Source: a virus
Taxonomy: Duplodnaviria; Caudoviricetes
Reading direction: 5' to 3' (one strand)
Length of the DNA stretch: 64,000 nt
IMG/VR virus record: IMGVR_UViG_3300032272_000006
Span: 19,754-83,753 of that record
The position numbers and the translations under genes are program-made. The notes under the pieces are model-generated. The model did no database searches and was not told the origin of the DNA. It worked only from the letters and a program-made list of their open reading frames with translations. Shown one piece after another: positions 19,545 through 63,601 of this stretch; position 1 is the first letter of the stretch; each line of letters starts with the position of its first letter.

Positions 19545-19760
19545 ATGTCTACGGAATTCAAACGAGTCGAAGCGAAGACGGAAGCCGACAAGCCAGTGGG
19601 CATGACGCAGTTCTGCGGCCCCAAGGTTGGCGAAGGCGTCGACCGGAAGCGGATGCAGTTCACGGTCGGCGACCAGTGGGTCGATATGTCTCGGGCCCAG
19701 GTTGTCGCAATGGTGGCAGCAATGACTGAGTGGGTCGCCGGCGAACGGGAGGAGGAATAA
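19545..19760 (+). CDS. Small early hypothetical protein (cassette 1)
   Basis: AGGAG RBS in the conserved leader. Confidence 0.7.
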   Translation: MSTEFKRVEAKTEADKPVGMTQFCGPKVGEGVDRKRMQFTVGDQWVDMSRAQVVAMVAAMTEWVAGEREEE

Positions 19761-19762
19761 AA

Positions 19763-19794
19763 TAACGGGCGGCGCGTTTAAACGTCGCCCGTTA
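19763..19794 (+). terminator. Hairpin with GTTTAAAC in its loop
   Basis: TAACGGGCGGC/GTCGCCCGTTA stem. Confidence 0.6.
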
Positions 19795-57385: not shown

Positions 57386-57597
57386 GGAAGGTTGACATAT
57401 ACGACGGCAAGTATACTTTCGTCATGACCGACGCCGGAACGATTGACCACGTCCTGCGACACGGCGAAGCGTGGCCTGCCGCAGATGACCTGACGGGCAT
57501 GGGCGTTGTCCTTGCGCTCGTCCAAGAGGTCGAAGAGAACCGTCAAGAAATAACTCGTCTCGAGGAAGAATTGTGCGATTTGAGGATTGATGGATGA
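57382..57597 (+). CDS. Hypothetical protein
   Basis: ATGA coupling. Confidence 0.55.
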   Translation: MRKVDIYDGKYTFVMTDAGTIDHVLRHGEAWPAADDLTGMGVVLALVQEVEENRQEITRLEEELCDLRIDG

Positions 57598-58121
57598 CCG
57601 CGACCATATCAGCAGACGGCTTGTACCGGTACGACCTAGTCCGCTACAACGGCAACCACAACCTGACCACGCCTTGCGTCTTCATCATGCTGAACCCGAG
57701 CACGGCGGACGCATCGAAAGACGACGCGACCATCCGTCGGTGCCGCGGCTATGCGGAATCGTGGGGCTATGGAAAGATGGTCGTGCTCAATTTGTTCGCC
57801 TTTCGCGCGACGAAACCCGAGGACCTCAAGGCCGCGGAAGACCCTATCGGCCCATTGACAGACGACTTCCTGCGCCGGTACCTCGAGTATGCAGTCAAGT
57901 GGAAAGGCCCGTTGATCTGCGCCTGGGGCACCCATGGGACGTTCATGGATCGCAACAAGGAGGTGCTCAATATCATCCGCCTGATGGGCGGGACGCCAAT
58001 GTGCTTGCGCACGACGAAGGACGGACATCCATCCCATCCTTTATATCTCCCGAAGAACCTCAAACCGTCGTTGTATGAGGGACCGAAGTTGCGCTATAGT
58101 AAGCGCATCAAATTGAAATAA
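57594..58121 (+). CDS. DUF1643-family protein
   Basis: YRYDL, FIMLNPSTAD, DDATIRRC, NLFAFRAT, ICAWG, GHPSHPLY. Confidence 0.9.
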   Translation: MTATISADGLYRYDLVRYNGNHNLTTPCVFIMLNPSTADASKDDATIRRCRGYAESWGYGKMVVLNLFAFRATKPEDLKAAEDPIGPLTDDFLRRYLEYAVKWKGPLICAWGTHGTFMDRNKEVLNIIRLMGGTPMCLRTTKDGHPSHPLYLPKNLKPSLYEGPKLRYSKRIKLK

Positions 58122-59629: not shown

Positions 59630-60225
59630 ACACTGACAAGGTACTCGACCTCGACTCATTGCGCGAACGTGGCGCACGTCCCCGCGTCCACGGCAACGGC
59701 TTCATTCAGCTTGACCTGACCGACCGGTTGCGCCTGCACGTATGGGGCGACCCGGACATCCCGCGTCAGACGACGCGCTCTCCTGTTCACGACCACGTCT
59801 TCTCGTTCACCAGCCACATAATCGTTGGGCGGATGGTCAACGTCGTCTACGATGCGTTCGAGAACGCTCACGGTGACTACCTCGTCCATACCCCTCGGAT
59901 ACGTCGAGGAGAAGACAGCATCCTCGTGCCTACGGAGGAGCGCGTGACGATCTTCCCACGTTCGGTCAACTTGATCGAGCAGGGAACGTCGAAGCGTCGG
60001 TACCCGATGCCCGCCTTCCACTATCACGAGACCCTGACCGACGGGCCCTCGGCAACAATCATCGAGAAGGACGGCCCGACACAAGCACAGGGCGCCGAGG
60101 CCCTCCCGCGCGTCCTCGTTCCTTTCGGCGTGGAGCCTGACAACGAGTTCGACCGCTACGATTGCGCGACACCCGACCAGCTGTGGACGATCATCGACCG
60201 CGTTCTGGCCCTCAGAAAGTCATAG
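59626..60225 (+). CDS. Cupin-like protein
   Basis: RLHVW...HDHVFSFTSHIIVG...YHET. Confidence 0.6.
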   Translation: MNTDKVLDLDSLRERGARPRVHGNGFIQLDLTDRLRLHVWGDPDIPRQTTRSPVHDHVFSFTSHIIVGRMVNVVYDAFENAHGDYLVHTPRIRRGEDSILVPTEERVTIFPRSVNLIEQGTSKRRYPMPAFHYHETLTDGPSATIIEKDGPTQAQGAEALPRVLVPFGVEPDNEFDRYDCATPDQLWTIIDRVLALRKS

Positions 60226-60281
60226 ACACGGACGACGCCATACGATAAAGTTAGCGGATCAATGAAGCAACGGAGACGATC

Positions 60282-61520
60282 ATGACCAAGACCGCTTACC
60301 TCTTCGACGACACGCAGAAGAACCCAATCAAGGCGTGGGTTCACGGTGTGCCGGTTGCCCATAACGCAATCGAACAGGCCCGGGCAACGGCGTCGATGCC
60401 TTTCATCTATAAGCACGTCGCGCTGATGCCAGACGTCCACCTCGGTTATGGCGCGACGGTCGGCTCCGTGATCCCAACCCAAGGCGCGATCATCCCAGCA
60501 GCCGTCGGCGTGGACATTGGCTGCGGCATGATGGCTGTCCGGACGAACATCACCGCGAACGAATTGCCGGACAGCTTGGTTGGCATGCGGACGGCAATCG
60601 AGGCCGCAATCCCGCATGGGCGAACGAACAACGGCATGCCAGGCGACCGCGGCGCGTGGGGCAATGCTCCCGCGCACGTCGAGGCGTCGTTTGAGTCCCT
60701 GAGTCGTGGCATGCAGACGATCATGGAGAAGCATCCTAAGATCGTGCGCCTCGGTTCGGCCCTTCACCGAAGCCTGAACCATATGGGCACGCTCGGTACC
60801 GGCAATCATTTTGTCGAGGTGTGCCTTGACGAGTCGGACGAGGTGTGGATCATGCTGCACTCAGGCTCCCGCGGCATCGGTAACGCAATCGGCTCCTACT
60901 TCATCAACCTGGCGAAGGAGGACATGCGGAAGTGGTTCATCAACCTGCCCGAGGCCGACCTCGCCTACCTGCCCGAGGGCACTGAGCACTTCGACGACTA
61001 CCGCACCGCGGTATCCTGGGCCCAGGCGTTCGCGCTCATGAACCGGGAGATCATGATGAAGGCCGCAACGAAAGCGGTCGCCTCGATCATGAAGCGAGAC
61101 ATTCGCACGAATGAGGTAGCGGTCAATTGCCATCATAACTACATCGACAAGGAGAACCACTTCGGACAGAACGTCTGGGTCACGCGCAAGGGAGCCGTCC
61201 GCGCTCGCAAAGGCGATCTCGGAATCATCCCAGGATCCATGGGCGCCCGGTCCTTCATCGTCGAAGGCCTCGGTGAGGCACAGTCATTCCATTCTTGTTC
61301 GCACGGTGCCGGACGTGTTATGTCCCGCACCCAGGCCCACAAGACGTTCTCGGTCGAGCAGCACATTGCAGCCACCGAGGGCGTCGAGTGCAAGAAGGAC
61401 GACTCGGTCATTGACGAGACGCCCGCGGCCTACAAAGACATCGACGCGGTCATGGCAGCACAGTCAGACCTCGTCAAGGTAAAGCACACGTTGAAGCAAG
61501 TCGTCTGCGTGAAGGGATAG
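60282..61520 (+). CDS. rtcB: RNA ligase RtcB
   Basis: MPDVH, VGVDIGCG, GTLGTGNHFVE, HSGSRG, CHHNY, SHGAGR, DETPAAYKDI. Confidence 0.96.
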   Translation: MTKTAYLFDDTQKNPIKAWVHGVPVAHNAIEQARATASMPFIYKHVALMPDVHLGYGATVGSVIPTQGAIIPAAVGVDIGCGMMAVRTNITANELPDSLVGMRTAIEAAIPHGRTNNGMPGDRGAWGNAPAHVEASFESLSRGMQTIMEKHPKIVRLGSALHRSLNHMGTLGTGNHFVEVCLDESDEVWIMLHSGSRGIGNAIGSYFINLAKEDMRKWFINLPEADLAYLPEGTEHFDDYRTAVSWAQAFALMNREIMMKAATKAVASIMKRDIRTNEVAVNCHHNYIDKENHFGQNVWVTRKGAVRARKGDLGIIPGSMGARSFIVEGLGEAQSFHSCSHGAGRVMSRTQAHKTFSVEQHIAATEGVECKKDDSVIDETPAAYKDIDAVMAAQSDLVKVKHTLKQVVCVKG

Positions 61521-61526
61521 AATTGT

Positions 61527-61612
61527 GGGAAGGGCCGGACGTTGGATTCGGCGCGGCAACAAGGAATACTAGTTGACCGGTTGCTGGGGAGGTTCGACTC
61601 CTCCCCTTCCCA
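61527..61612 (+). ncRNA. tRNA-like RNA with canonical acceptor, D and T arms but an aberrant anticodon arm
   Basis: GGGAAGG/CCTTCCC acceptor; D stem with TGG loop; GGAGG-TTCGACT-CCTCC T arm; no 7-nt anticodon loop; no encoded CCA. Confidence 0.65.
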
Positions 61613-61623
61613 GGACGTTTAAA

Positions 61624-61699
61624 CAGGGCGTAGCTCAGTCGGTAGAGTGCCGGGTTTGGAACCTGGAGGCCGTAGGTTCGAGTCCTACCGCCCTGACCA
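61624..61699 (+). tRNA. tRNA-Pro(TGG)
   Basis: Full cloverleaf: CAGGGCG/CGCCCTG; CCGGG-TT TGG AA-CCTGG; GTAGG-TTCGAGT-CCTAC; ends ACCA. Confidence 0.95.
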
Positions 61700-61714: not shown

Positions 61715-62584
61715 TTGGGTCTCGTCTACGTCGCTTTTAATTTAGTCAATGGCAAGACCTACGTCGGGCAGACGTTAGGAACCCTTGACGCGCGGAAGTC
61801 GTGCCATAAGTCAGAAGCGCTCAACAACAAGACGGGAATGATATTCCACAAAGCGATCCGTAAGTACGGCTTCGACGCTTTCGAGTGGGAGGTGATCGTT
61901 GAGTATTCGCGGGACTTCATCCAACAGACCCACGTTGACTCTGATCCACGACTCGCATGCTTACCCAACGACGACAAGCAAGAAGTGATTTCCAAGTTCG
62001 AGGTTGCTTTGACAAACTCAGCCGAGAAGCTTGGCATCGAGACGCTGAACTCCCTCGCCGGAGGCAACGGTTACAATCTTTTCACCGGCGGCGACAATCG
62101 AAAGATGAGCAAGGAACAGCACGCGCGCCATATGGAAAAGGTTCAACGTGAGGACTACCTCGTTGCCCTTCGTGCAGGTGTCAAGGCGAGTTATGAAAGA
62201 GCCGGCCCTGAGCACAAGAAAGCTCGAGATGCTGCTATCGCGAAGGCGAATACCAAGCGGTCGGGTCTAAGGACGAAGGTTCACGGTATCGAATACGCGA
62301 GCCGGGGAGACGCGGCACGGGCCCTAGGAATATCGTCCGCCCTCCTAGGACACCGATTGAAGTCAGACCGCTATCCTGCCTATATCATGGTCGAAGAGGC
62401 ATCGGAAGAGTACAAGGAAAACCTGCGCCGTCACGTTCGCAAGGCCTTAACACCCGAGAATCATGCCAAGCGAGTAGAAGGCATAAAACGTCACTGGAGC
62501 AATTTGAACGAAGAAGAATATGCTACTCGATGCGCCGCCGGTCGACGCATAAATCCAATTCTCAAAGGAGAAGGCAATGACTAA
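61715..62584 (+). mobile_element. Free-standing GIY-YIG homing endonuclease
   Basis: LVYVAFNLVNGKTYVGQT, HKAIRKYG, GYNL; TTG start with AAGGA RBS. Confidence 0.85.
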
Positions 62585-63185
62585 GAAGTTTCAGGAACCC
62601 ATGACGAACAGCGACGGCAGCAAGCGCCTCGGCCTCACGTCGAAGGACAGCAACCCGAAGGACGGCGTGGGCGTCAAGAAGTGGCGGCAATTCTGCTGCG
62701 TCCCGTTCACCGTCGTTTGGGAACTCGGTGTCGCGATGCTCGAGGGCGCCATGAAGTACGGTCGCCATAACTATCGAGTGTCGGGCGTCCGCGCTTCCAT
62801 TTACGTCGAGGCGGCGCGAGGTCATATCGACTGCTACTGGGAAGGCGAAGACACCGACCCGGACAGTGGGCTTCCGCATATCGTCAAGGCCATGGCATCA
62901 CTCGCCGTCCTGCGCGATGCGCAAATCCAAGGCCGGTACGTCGATGACCGCCCGCCCAAGACGGACATCACCGAAATCTCGGAAAGGCTCCAAGGCATCG
63001 TGGATGAGCTGTTCGAGAAATATCCCGATCCCATCCCACCTTACGTCGAAGGAGATCAGTACACGGACGAGGAACGCGCCTGGAAGCTGTATTGCCAGGA
63101 GACGGCGGGAGACATGGACGTCAAAGACTTCTGGTCAGAATTAACGCCGAAGATTCAGAAACTCTATCTTGAAAAGGTAACCTAA
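62577..63185 (+). CDS. dATP/dGTP diphosphohydrolase-domain protein (DUF5664-like)
   Basis: NPKD...AMLEGAMKYGRHNY...GEDTDPDSGLPHI. Confidence 0.85.
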   Translation: MTKKFQEPMTNSDGSKRLGLTSKDSNPKDGVGVKKWRQFCCVPFTVVWELGVAMLEGAMKYGRHNYRVSGVRASIYVEAARGHIDCYWEGEDTDPDSGLPHIVKAMASLAVLRDAQIQGRYVDDRPPKTDITEISERLQGIVDELFEKYPDPIPPYVEGDQYTDEERAWKLYCQETAGDMDVKDFWSELTPKIQKLYLEKVT

Positions 63186-63601
63186 TGGACATGACGAAAT
63201 ATGCCAAGTTCGTGGAGATTGGCAACTTCACAGAGAGCCCGCGAGACGCGCGCTTCCTATCCGCGATGGGTCTGTCTGGGGAAACGGCTGAGGTCGCAGC
63301 GCTGACCGAGCAGATGATCACGGCTCACCTTGCCACAACGTCACTTGCCATCCGTGGCGGCAATGTCGCTGACATTCTCAAGAAGCATCTGCTTCATGGG
63401 AAATTTCTTGACAAGGAAGCCCTGGTCAAGGAACTCGGCGACGTTATGTGGTATGTCCAGCACACCTGCAACGTGTTCGGGATCGAGTTCGCGTCGGTCA
63501 TCGACTCGAACGTCGCCAAATTGTGCGACCGATACCCCGACCGATATGGGAAGGCGGAGGACTACGGTGTCACGTCGCGTCCGGGATCGGGTGCCAGATG
63601 A
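63185..63601 (+). CDS. MazG-like nucleotide pyrophosphohydrolase
   Basis: GLSGETAEV...KELGDVMWY...NVAKL..RYP. Confidence 0.85.
   Translation: MDMTKYAKFVEIGNFTESPRDARFLSAMGLSGETAEVAALTEQMITAHLATTSLAIRGGNVADILKKHLLHGKFLDKEALVKELGDVMWYVQHTCNVFGIEFASVIDSNVAKLCDRYPDRYGKAEDYGVTSRPGSGAR

Follow-up and report, generated by a model that had tools for sequence, protein, structure and literature searches.

We examined an 86-nt, tRNA-shaped element, hereafter the mimic, that follows the rtcB gene of an uncultured phage. The phage is represented by an 83.7-kb IMG/VR virus record (IMGVR_UViG_3300032272_000006), rated complete by CheckV, and the 64,000-nt stretch of it that was analyzed (positions 19,754 to 83,753 of the record) is called the window in what follows. 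Coordinates are those of the window, and L-numbers denote loci or contigs that carry relatives of the window's RtcB. The mimic lies among the following features:

60282-61520, plus strand: rtcB, encoding a 412-aa RNA 3'-phosphate/5'-OH ligase (Pfam PF01139, 434 bits; homologues at 60 to 98% identity) and ending in the TAG stop codon at 61518-61520.
61521-61526, plus strand: spacer or 5' leader AATTGT, 6 nt, of which TGT is kept in the homologue (from alignment).
61527-61612, plus strand: the tRNA-shaped RNA (mimic), 86 nt, delimited by sequence, covariation counts, RNAalifold and covariance model R1.
61613-61616, plus strand: 3' trailer GGAC, in place of CCA, kept in both homologues (from alignment).
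61617-61624, no strand assigned: palindrome GTTTAAAC, whose last base is base 1 of tRNA-Pro; L181 and L389 share this junction.
61624-61699, plus strand: canonical tRNA-Pro(UGG) with encoded CCA (ARAGORN; Rfam RF00005, 69.9 bits).
61715-62584, plus strand: gene for a GIY-YIG / I-TevI-like homing endonuclease (Pfam PF20987, 32.4 bits; PF01541 weak).

A first-pass annotation, made from the sequence, had pointed to a tRNA mimic just after the rtcB stop codon, separated from a normal tRNA-Pro by a copy of the palindrome, and both points are seen in the sequence. The strand of the mimic was set as plus by three G.U pairs and the T-loop motif, and its parts are arranged as follows:

61527-61533 / 61605-61611: acceptor stem, a perfect 7 bp, GGGAAGG/CCTTCCC.
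61534-61537 / 61549-61552: D stem, 4 bp, GCCG/CGGC, enclosing a D loop of 11 nt (61538-61548) with GG inside.
61553 and 61587: single-base linkers, G on the 5' side and G on the 3' side of the long arm.
61554-61560 / 61580-61586: outer stem of the long arm, 7 bp with one G.U, CGGCAAC/GTTGCTG.
61561-61579: top of the long arm, with a bulged A (61561), inner pairs (61562-61564/61577-61579) and a 12-nt loop (61565-61576).
61568-61573: palindrome ACTAGT, within the 12-nt loop.
61588-61604: T arm GGAGG-TTCGACT-CCTCC, with its stem at 61588-61592/61600-61604 and the loop TTCGACT at 61593-61599.
61612: discriminator A.

The features of a canonical tRNA that are present, namely the 7-bp acceptor stem, the 5-bp T stem with a TPsiC-type loop and the D-loop GG, leave the top half of the molecule intact, with a 12-bp acceptor/T stack and a GGTTCGA T loop. 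An optional eighth acceptor pair can form between T61526 and A61612 (U-1 with A73), so that the acceptor stem extendable to 8 bp, the D arm with its GG and the T arm are all seen as first annotated, together with the lack of U8 and of an encoded CCA. In fact, the D stem abuts the acceptor stem with 0 nt between them, which leaves no U8/N9, and only 1 to 2 nt separate the long arm from the T stem in both homologues, so that there is almost no variable loop. The anticodon arm is replaced by a bulged hairpin of about 10 bp (7+3) with the 12-nt loop. This arm had first been drawn as a 7-bp stem closing a 19-nt loop; the stem stands, while comparison with the homologue redraws the loop as the bulged A, 2 to 3 further pairs (xGG/CCG) and a 12-nt loop. 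An alternative arm proposed at the same time, a 4-bp bulged stem with an 11-nt loop, was dropped because its pairing is not kept in the homologue.

Among 80 IMG/VR loci with RtcB relatives, only L002 presents a T-loop motif 3' of rtcB without a tRNA call. It is also the closest of those 80 loci (RtcB 69% identical to that of the window), and its mimic starts 3 nt past the rtcB stop, compared to the 6-nt spacer in the window; a second sample, L392, holds a copy identical to that of L002. The mimic is 84% identical between the window and L002, compared to about 66 to 70% for the final 400 nt of rtcB, as counted from the alignment. Recent transfer together with the 3' end of rtcB was rejected, since rtcB identity does not climb toward the mimic. 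With 26 pairs considered over the two copies, 98% of the cells are paired. Double changes, in which both partners differ, affect five pairs, three of them in the long stem and one each in the acceptor and D stems; two more pairs differ in a single partner, via G.U, and the sole unpaired cell is an A.G in the window that corresponds to C-G in L002. No stem pair present in both copies is broken, and all 13 of the 13 stem-nucleotide differences keep or improve pairing, in phages that are about 30% diverged. Controls in which the pairing partners were slid by 1 to 3 columns gave 0 to 1 such changed pairs. Moreover, RNAalifold returned the same cloverleaf from the two copies without a supplied structure, the minimum free energies of the two homologues have z values of -3.3 and -2.8, none of 200 shuffles being as stable, and covariance model R1 scores 108.9 bits in the window and 112.4 bits in L002. 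The comparison points to a genuine new family of tRNA-like RNA beside phage rtcB, not represented in Rfam, with two known members and a well-supported structure. The first-pass annotation had named conserved covariation in homologues as the test of its proposal, with a decaying tRNA pseudogene as the opposite outcome; the compensatory changes and the RNAalifold fold speak for a genuine tRNA mimic under selection and against the pseudogene.

Across the two copies, the long arm is unchanged in length and retains the bulged A, several bases of the loop and stem top, and a GUU in the loop, and because of this conservation it is likely to be the functional part. Both 12-nt loops also hold a 6-nt palindrome, which has changed completely between the phages (ACUAGU in the window, CCGCGG in L002) and is still palindromic; the rest of the loop is mostly different. 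By simple counting, the chance of paired palindromes is about 0.01 to 0.04, with a palindrome length that was picked post hoc, and we regard them as a hint of loop-loop dimerization, not as evidence for it.

No third distinct member was retrieved by blastn against INPHARED (50,697 phage records), by pattern scans of IMG/VR, by covariance model R1 applied to 94 IMG/VR and 80 metagenome rtcB loci, to the 80 GTDB pattern matches listed and to 50 whole IMG/VR records, or in the readable contigs of the closest RtcB proteins. The best matches of the model outside the family are class II tRNAs, such as a tRNA-Tyr in L033 at 33.8 bits. The family may nevertheless exceed two members, because several close contigs were unreadable and the GTDB matches covered are those listed.

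The position occupied by the mimic was then compared among relatives, where one segment is of particular concern:

61520-61614, plus strand: 95-nt segment missing from L389 (from alignment; boundary ambiguous by 1 nt).

In L389, whose RtcB is 98% identical to that of the window, the junction reads GGGATAA-CGTTTAAAC-tRNA-Pro; the mimic is missing with a clean 95-nt gap, and the tRNA-Pro and the sequence downstream are identical to those of the window over the stretch read. The same mimic-less junction is found in L181 (RtcB 81%), and tRNA-Pro lies 1 nt past the rtcB stop in L183 (RtcB 73%, 83.8-kb contig); in L181, L183 and L389 taken together this distance is 1 to 8 nt. In L182, tRNA-Pro lies about 600 nt downstream of rtcB. 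Furthermore, in 9 of the 80 other phage loci a real tRNA begins 4 to 24 nt beyond the point where the rtcB match stops. L265 (3743-3790; RtcB 88% identical to that of L002, its closest relative) holds, right after rtcB and in the slot of the mimic of L002, a truncated tRNA-Pro of which the T arm and the 3' strand of the acceptor stem, with CCA, are left. The slot after rtcB is occupied by tRNA-Pro, by the mimic, by both or by a remnant, and the mimic is an accessory, 95-nt cassette, dispensable because it is missing from a relative with a 98% identical RtcB. The junction without the mimic is identical in L389 and L181. Two histories would account for the difference from the window: a recent gain of the cassette in the window lineage, from a relative that is not sampled, or its loss from L389 when it recombined with a relative lacking the mimic.

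It is plausible, by analogy, that the GIY-YIG endonuclease encoded beyond tRNA-Pro acts as the engine of such cassette exchanges: T4 SegB, which belongs to the same class of endonucleases, causes the T4 tRNA region to be inherited preferentially, as cited in PMC8421152. The homing endonuclease gene lies directly 3' of tRNA-Pro in the window and is present in L389 and L183 as well, an order of genes reminiscent of segB within the T4 tRNA cluster. As a separate observation, the window and L389 differ at few positions, of which about 13 fall in 40 nt near the 3' end of rtcB (61425-61466), where at several positions L389 matches the distant L002, which looks like a small recombination patch. We could also notice that tRNA-Pro is by far the most frequent tRNA gene adjoining phage rtcB, almost always with the UGG anticodon and often a few bases from the rtcB start or stop (L010, L022, L023, L031, L033, L046, L047, L049, L057, L058, L061, L067, L072, L074, L075, L119, L136, L162, L166, L181-L183 and L389).

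It could be supposed that the mimic is a decaying tRNA pseudogene, or the scar of recombination in a hot spot of tRNA genes, with the neighboring homing endonuclease as the driving force. The patchy distribution, the clean indel relative to L389, the true tRNA-Pro remnant in L265 and the nearby GIY-YIG gene, considering that T4 SegB mobilizes tRNA regions (cited in PMC8421152), would be in keeping with this. However, every one of the 13 stem differences keeps or improves pairing in phages of such divergence, and the mimic is more conserved than the neighboring coding DNA, which makes such an origin very improbable. The remnant in L265 shows that unselected tRNA sequence decays in this slot, and the mimic has not.

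The mimic was also compared to the known classes of tRNA and tRNA-like RNA. With Rfam at gathering thresholds and ARAGORN at default settings, tRNA-Pro was the only call around the locus in the window, the mimic not being called, and Rfam searches of the mimic at E <= 10 gave only sub-threshold matches to tRNA-Sec, tRNA and YrlA. The mimic of L002 scores 20.8 bits against the Rfam tRNA family (RF00005; gathering score 29) and likewise receives no default ARAGORN call. A canonical tRNA was rejected because the U8/N9 connector and the variable region of 4 to 5 nt (or long) are missing, and because a 7+3-bp stem with a 12-nt loop takes the place of the 5-bp anticodon stem and 7-nt loop; the conserved U33-NNN-R37 does not occur in any register of the loop in the two homologues. 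For tRNA-Sec (RF01852; 8/5 stems, 6-bp D stem, UCA anticodon), the mimic reaches 20.9 bits against a gathering score of 47, its D stem is 4 bp and it has no UCA loop. A class II tRNA-Ile(AAT) with a long variable arm, forced by ARAGORN, does not pair in L002. As for tmRNA, ARAGORN -m was negative, the third acceptor pair is G3-C70 and not G3.U70, and no tag open reading frame is conserved. Read-through of the rtcB stop codon into the mimic was set aside as well, the frame being open for 31 codons in the window and meeting a TGA after 11 in L002.

Since RtcB is the tRNA-splicing ligase of archaea and animals, an unusual decoding tRNA was also considered, in which a 12-nt insert in the anticodon loop would be removed by a nuclease and the ends sealed by the neighboring RtcB; an intron-like RNA of this kind had been among the first suggestions. 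With introns allowed and a lowered threshold, ARAGORN can in fact be forced to call a tRNA-Val(GAC) with a 12-nt intron. However, the same removal leaves ACC in L002, position 37 is a pyrimidine (C), the stem is 7 bp long, the insert would lie at position 31/32, which is not a known intron site, and there is no bulge-helix-bulge motif. Together with the missing U8/N9 and variable loop, the Rfam tRNA score below threshold and the lack of a default ARAGORN call, these features render a decoding role highly improbable, and the intron-like proposal was abandoned. The idea that a specific anticodon loop is imitated fared no better, the loop being 12 nt long and mostly variable. A link to the phage 7-deazaguanine genes was rejected too: the loop keeps GUU and not the UGU needed by TGT, and neither phage record gives a match to the TGT family PF01702. 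In the window, no antisense target of the 12-nt loop was found other than the mimic itself.

Bacterial Y RNAs deserve separate treatment, being tRNA mimics themselves that are encoded in rsr-yrlA-rtcB operons (PMC4201824). In our data, five metagenome contigs carry bona fide YrlA just upstream of rtcB, scoring 71 to 82 bits and presenting the Ro-binding motif (GGCGAAUG), and they served as positive control:

L116: 1089-1223, YrlA.
L126: 1041-1153, YrlA.
L128: 957-1227, two YrlA in tandem.
L130: 377-504, YrlA.
L140: 742-866, YrlA.

The mimic, in contrast, scores 15.2 bits against YrlA (RF02553; E = 2, gathering score 69), and the match on the window spans the T arm of the mimic and the D arm of tRNA-Pro, a bridging artefact that tandem tRNAs can yield, as cautioned by Chen et al. 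(PMC4201824). The Ro-binding motif GNCGAAN0-1G, read by eye, does not occur in either homologue. In YrlA the elements are circularly permuted (T arm, closed acceptor-like hairpin, D arm) and the molecule ends in a stem at the anticodon position, whereas in the mimic they follow the normal order of acceptor 5' strand, D arm, long arm, T arm and acceptor 3' strand. YrlA is, moreover, encoded beside Rsr, while a search of the whole 83.7-kb phage record, which is complete, gave no match to the TROVE domain (Ro60/Rsr, PF05731); as a control, PF05731 matched 2 of 14 control genomes, Deinococcus radiodurans included. It is thus extremely improbable that the mimic is a Y RNA of the YrlA/Yrn1 kind tethering Ro60/Rsr in an RtcB-linked RNA repair particle. 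The first-pass annotation had already remarked that the topology of bacterial Y RNAs is different, which the order of the elements bears out; of its suggestion of a Y-RNA-like tRNA mimic, tRNA mimicry is retained and membership in YrlA is not. Still, the two have in common that they are non-decoding, bear tRNA-like D and T arms with an acceptor-like stem and are linked to rtcB.

The main rival to the interpretation that we favor is a role in pure punctuation, namely, that the mimic is a cis-acting t-element in the 3' untranslated region of the rtcB mRNA, which, by being cleaved by RNase P or by blocking an exonuclease, punctuates or stabilizes the message, the released RNA having no function of its own. 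The mimic begins 3 to 6 nt past the rtcB stop in both phages, and tRNA-Pro is found at exactly this place in relatives. Plant mitochondrial t-elements, tRNA-like folds at the ends of coding regions, act in this way, their cleavage by RNase P or RNase Z defining mRNA ends (Forner et al. 2007, PMC1920247). However, punctuation does not need the mimic, because tRNA-Pro already follows in the window and L389 copes with tRNA-Pro alone. Furthermore, the acceptor/T half would suffice for it, yet the length, bulged A and loop and stem-top bases of the long arm are kept; the t-elements, on the other hand, are organellar and are regarded as functionless after release. On balance, we consider punctuation as the whole role to be unlikely.

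Our preference, expressed with modest confidence, is that a real gene, maintained by selection, occupies 61527-61612 and encodes a small RNA that has the shape of a tRNA and does not decode. This RNA would be released by tRNA-processing enzymes, and its likeliest use would be as an accessory factor in the conflict over tRNA damage and repair in which RtcB serves. A scan of the sequence found neither a promoter nor a terminator between rtcB and the mimic or between the mimic and tRNA-Pro, and for this reason the three are probably carried on one transcript; a promoter-like site lies upstream of rtcB (60223-60251). From such a co-transcript, RNase P would cleave at G1 of the mimic, given U-1 and the 7-bp acceptor stem plus T arm. 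Bacterial RNase P reads the acceptor/T stack, the T loop, the D-loop GG and U-1, and because the mimic offers these same cues, with a stack of 12 bp, it may be released like a tRNA. The same cut would set the 3' end of the rtcB mRNA, and host enzymes would then trim the 3' end of the mimic and perhaps add CCA, so that a stable RNA accumulates. A precedent is offered by YrlA of M. smegmatis, which is cut by RNase P, an event attributed to its 7-bp acceptor-like stem, and receives CCA in vivo (PMC4201824).

In such an RNA, the tRNA body would serve as a handle for processing and stability and the long arm as the working part, and the whole may engage, as a bait or a competitor, some host factor that responds to the shape of tRNA and not to a particular anticodon. 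A shape-reading bait would fit the link to rtcB, the accessory distribution and published ideas on tRNA sponges, extra tRNAs having been proposed to act in this manner against toxin RNases, together with RtcB (PMC8421152). It is possible to go further and to hypothesize, tentatively and with low expectation, that the mimic is a dedicated partner of phage RNA repair, a bait that is bound or cut by host tRNA-targeting toxins or sensors and resealed by RtcB, and that is maybe dimeric via its self-complementary loop.

Several points weigh against the interpretation that we favor. The covariation statistics are thin, there being two distinct sequences only: 14 of 500 column shuffles reached the observed covariation values, a weak statistic. 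The absence of the mimic from a near-identical phage shows that it is not needed for RtcB function, and the link to rtcB may merely reflect the location of rtcB at a hot spot of tRNA genes. Without U8/N9 and with a variable region of 1 to 2 nt, the canonical tRNA core cannot form, so that recognition by RNase P or the CCA-adding enzyme is no more than plausible. Finally, the 12-nt loop is unlike any anticodon loop, and a bait for classical anticodon nucleases is unlikely.

Around the rtcB region, the window encodes the following further genes:

57594-58121: DUF1643 gene.
62577-63185: gene for a protein with a dATP/dGTP diphosphohydrolase N-terminal domain.
63185-63601: gene for a MazG-like pyrophosphohydrolase.

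The order DUF1643 ... rtcB ... dGTP_diPhyd_N-MazG is shared by the phage of the window and that of L002/L392. The palindrome GTTTAAAC between the mimic and tRNA-Pro belongs to a larger set: the window has 19 copies where 0.38 would be expected (for example, at 19776, 20648, 21186, 50051, 55934 and 61617), and the related contig L392 has 3 where 0.27 would be expected; a further site is L181:2272-2279. It usually occurs in the form CGTTTAAACG, often as the center of a longer inverted repeat, and several copies lie just upstream of sigma70-like promoters; in the window, and likewise in three relatives, one copy adjoins base 1 of tRNA-Pro. GTTTAAAC is probably a family-wide motif for regulator binding or processing.

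Other known RNAs invite comparison. The stable RNAs C and D of phage T4 (rnaC, rnaD) are, as the mimic, small phage RNAs; their genes lie within the T4 tRNA gene cluster, and they mature along with the tRNAs. They are longer, at about 120 to 140 nt, and are not known to be akin to the mimic in sequence or fold. The tRNA-like domain of tmRNA, as the mimic, combines an acceptor stem and T arm with a reduced D region and another helix in place of the anticodon arm; different from the mimic, tmRNA owes its alanine identity to G3.U70, ends in a CCA that is either encoded or added, and contains pseudoknots as well as a tag reading frame, whereas the mimic has G3-C70, is 86 nt long and has no open reading frame. 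In engineered tRNA scaffold RNAs, the anticodon arm is swapped for a cargo and the tRNA body secures processing and stability. Their architecture is that of the mimic, with a foreign hairpin at the anticodon position, but they are artificial and retain U8, a variable loop and CCA, while the mimic is natural and its junction compacted. The T4 tRNA region also resembles that of the window in hosting a GIY-YIG Seg endonuclease, SegB (cited in PMC8421152).

As regards the biology of these phages, the element is conserved, non-decoding, abutting rtcB and variable between near-identical phages, and it looks like an accessory counter-defense or regulatory RNA and not a part of translation. Phage tRNA genes and RNA ligases are now seen as answers to host nucleases that cut tRNA. 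Should its processing and a partner be found, a natural tRNA scaffold RNA would join the bacterial tRNA mimics, tmRNA and the Y RNAs, and with 86 nt and two natural variants the mimic would provide a simple handle on the role of phage RtcB. If its role were only punctuation, it would be, as far as we could find, the first phage analogue of the organellar t-elements.

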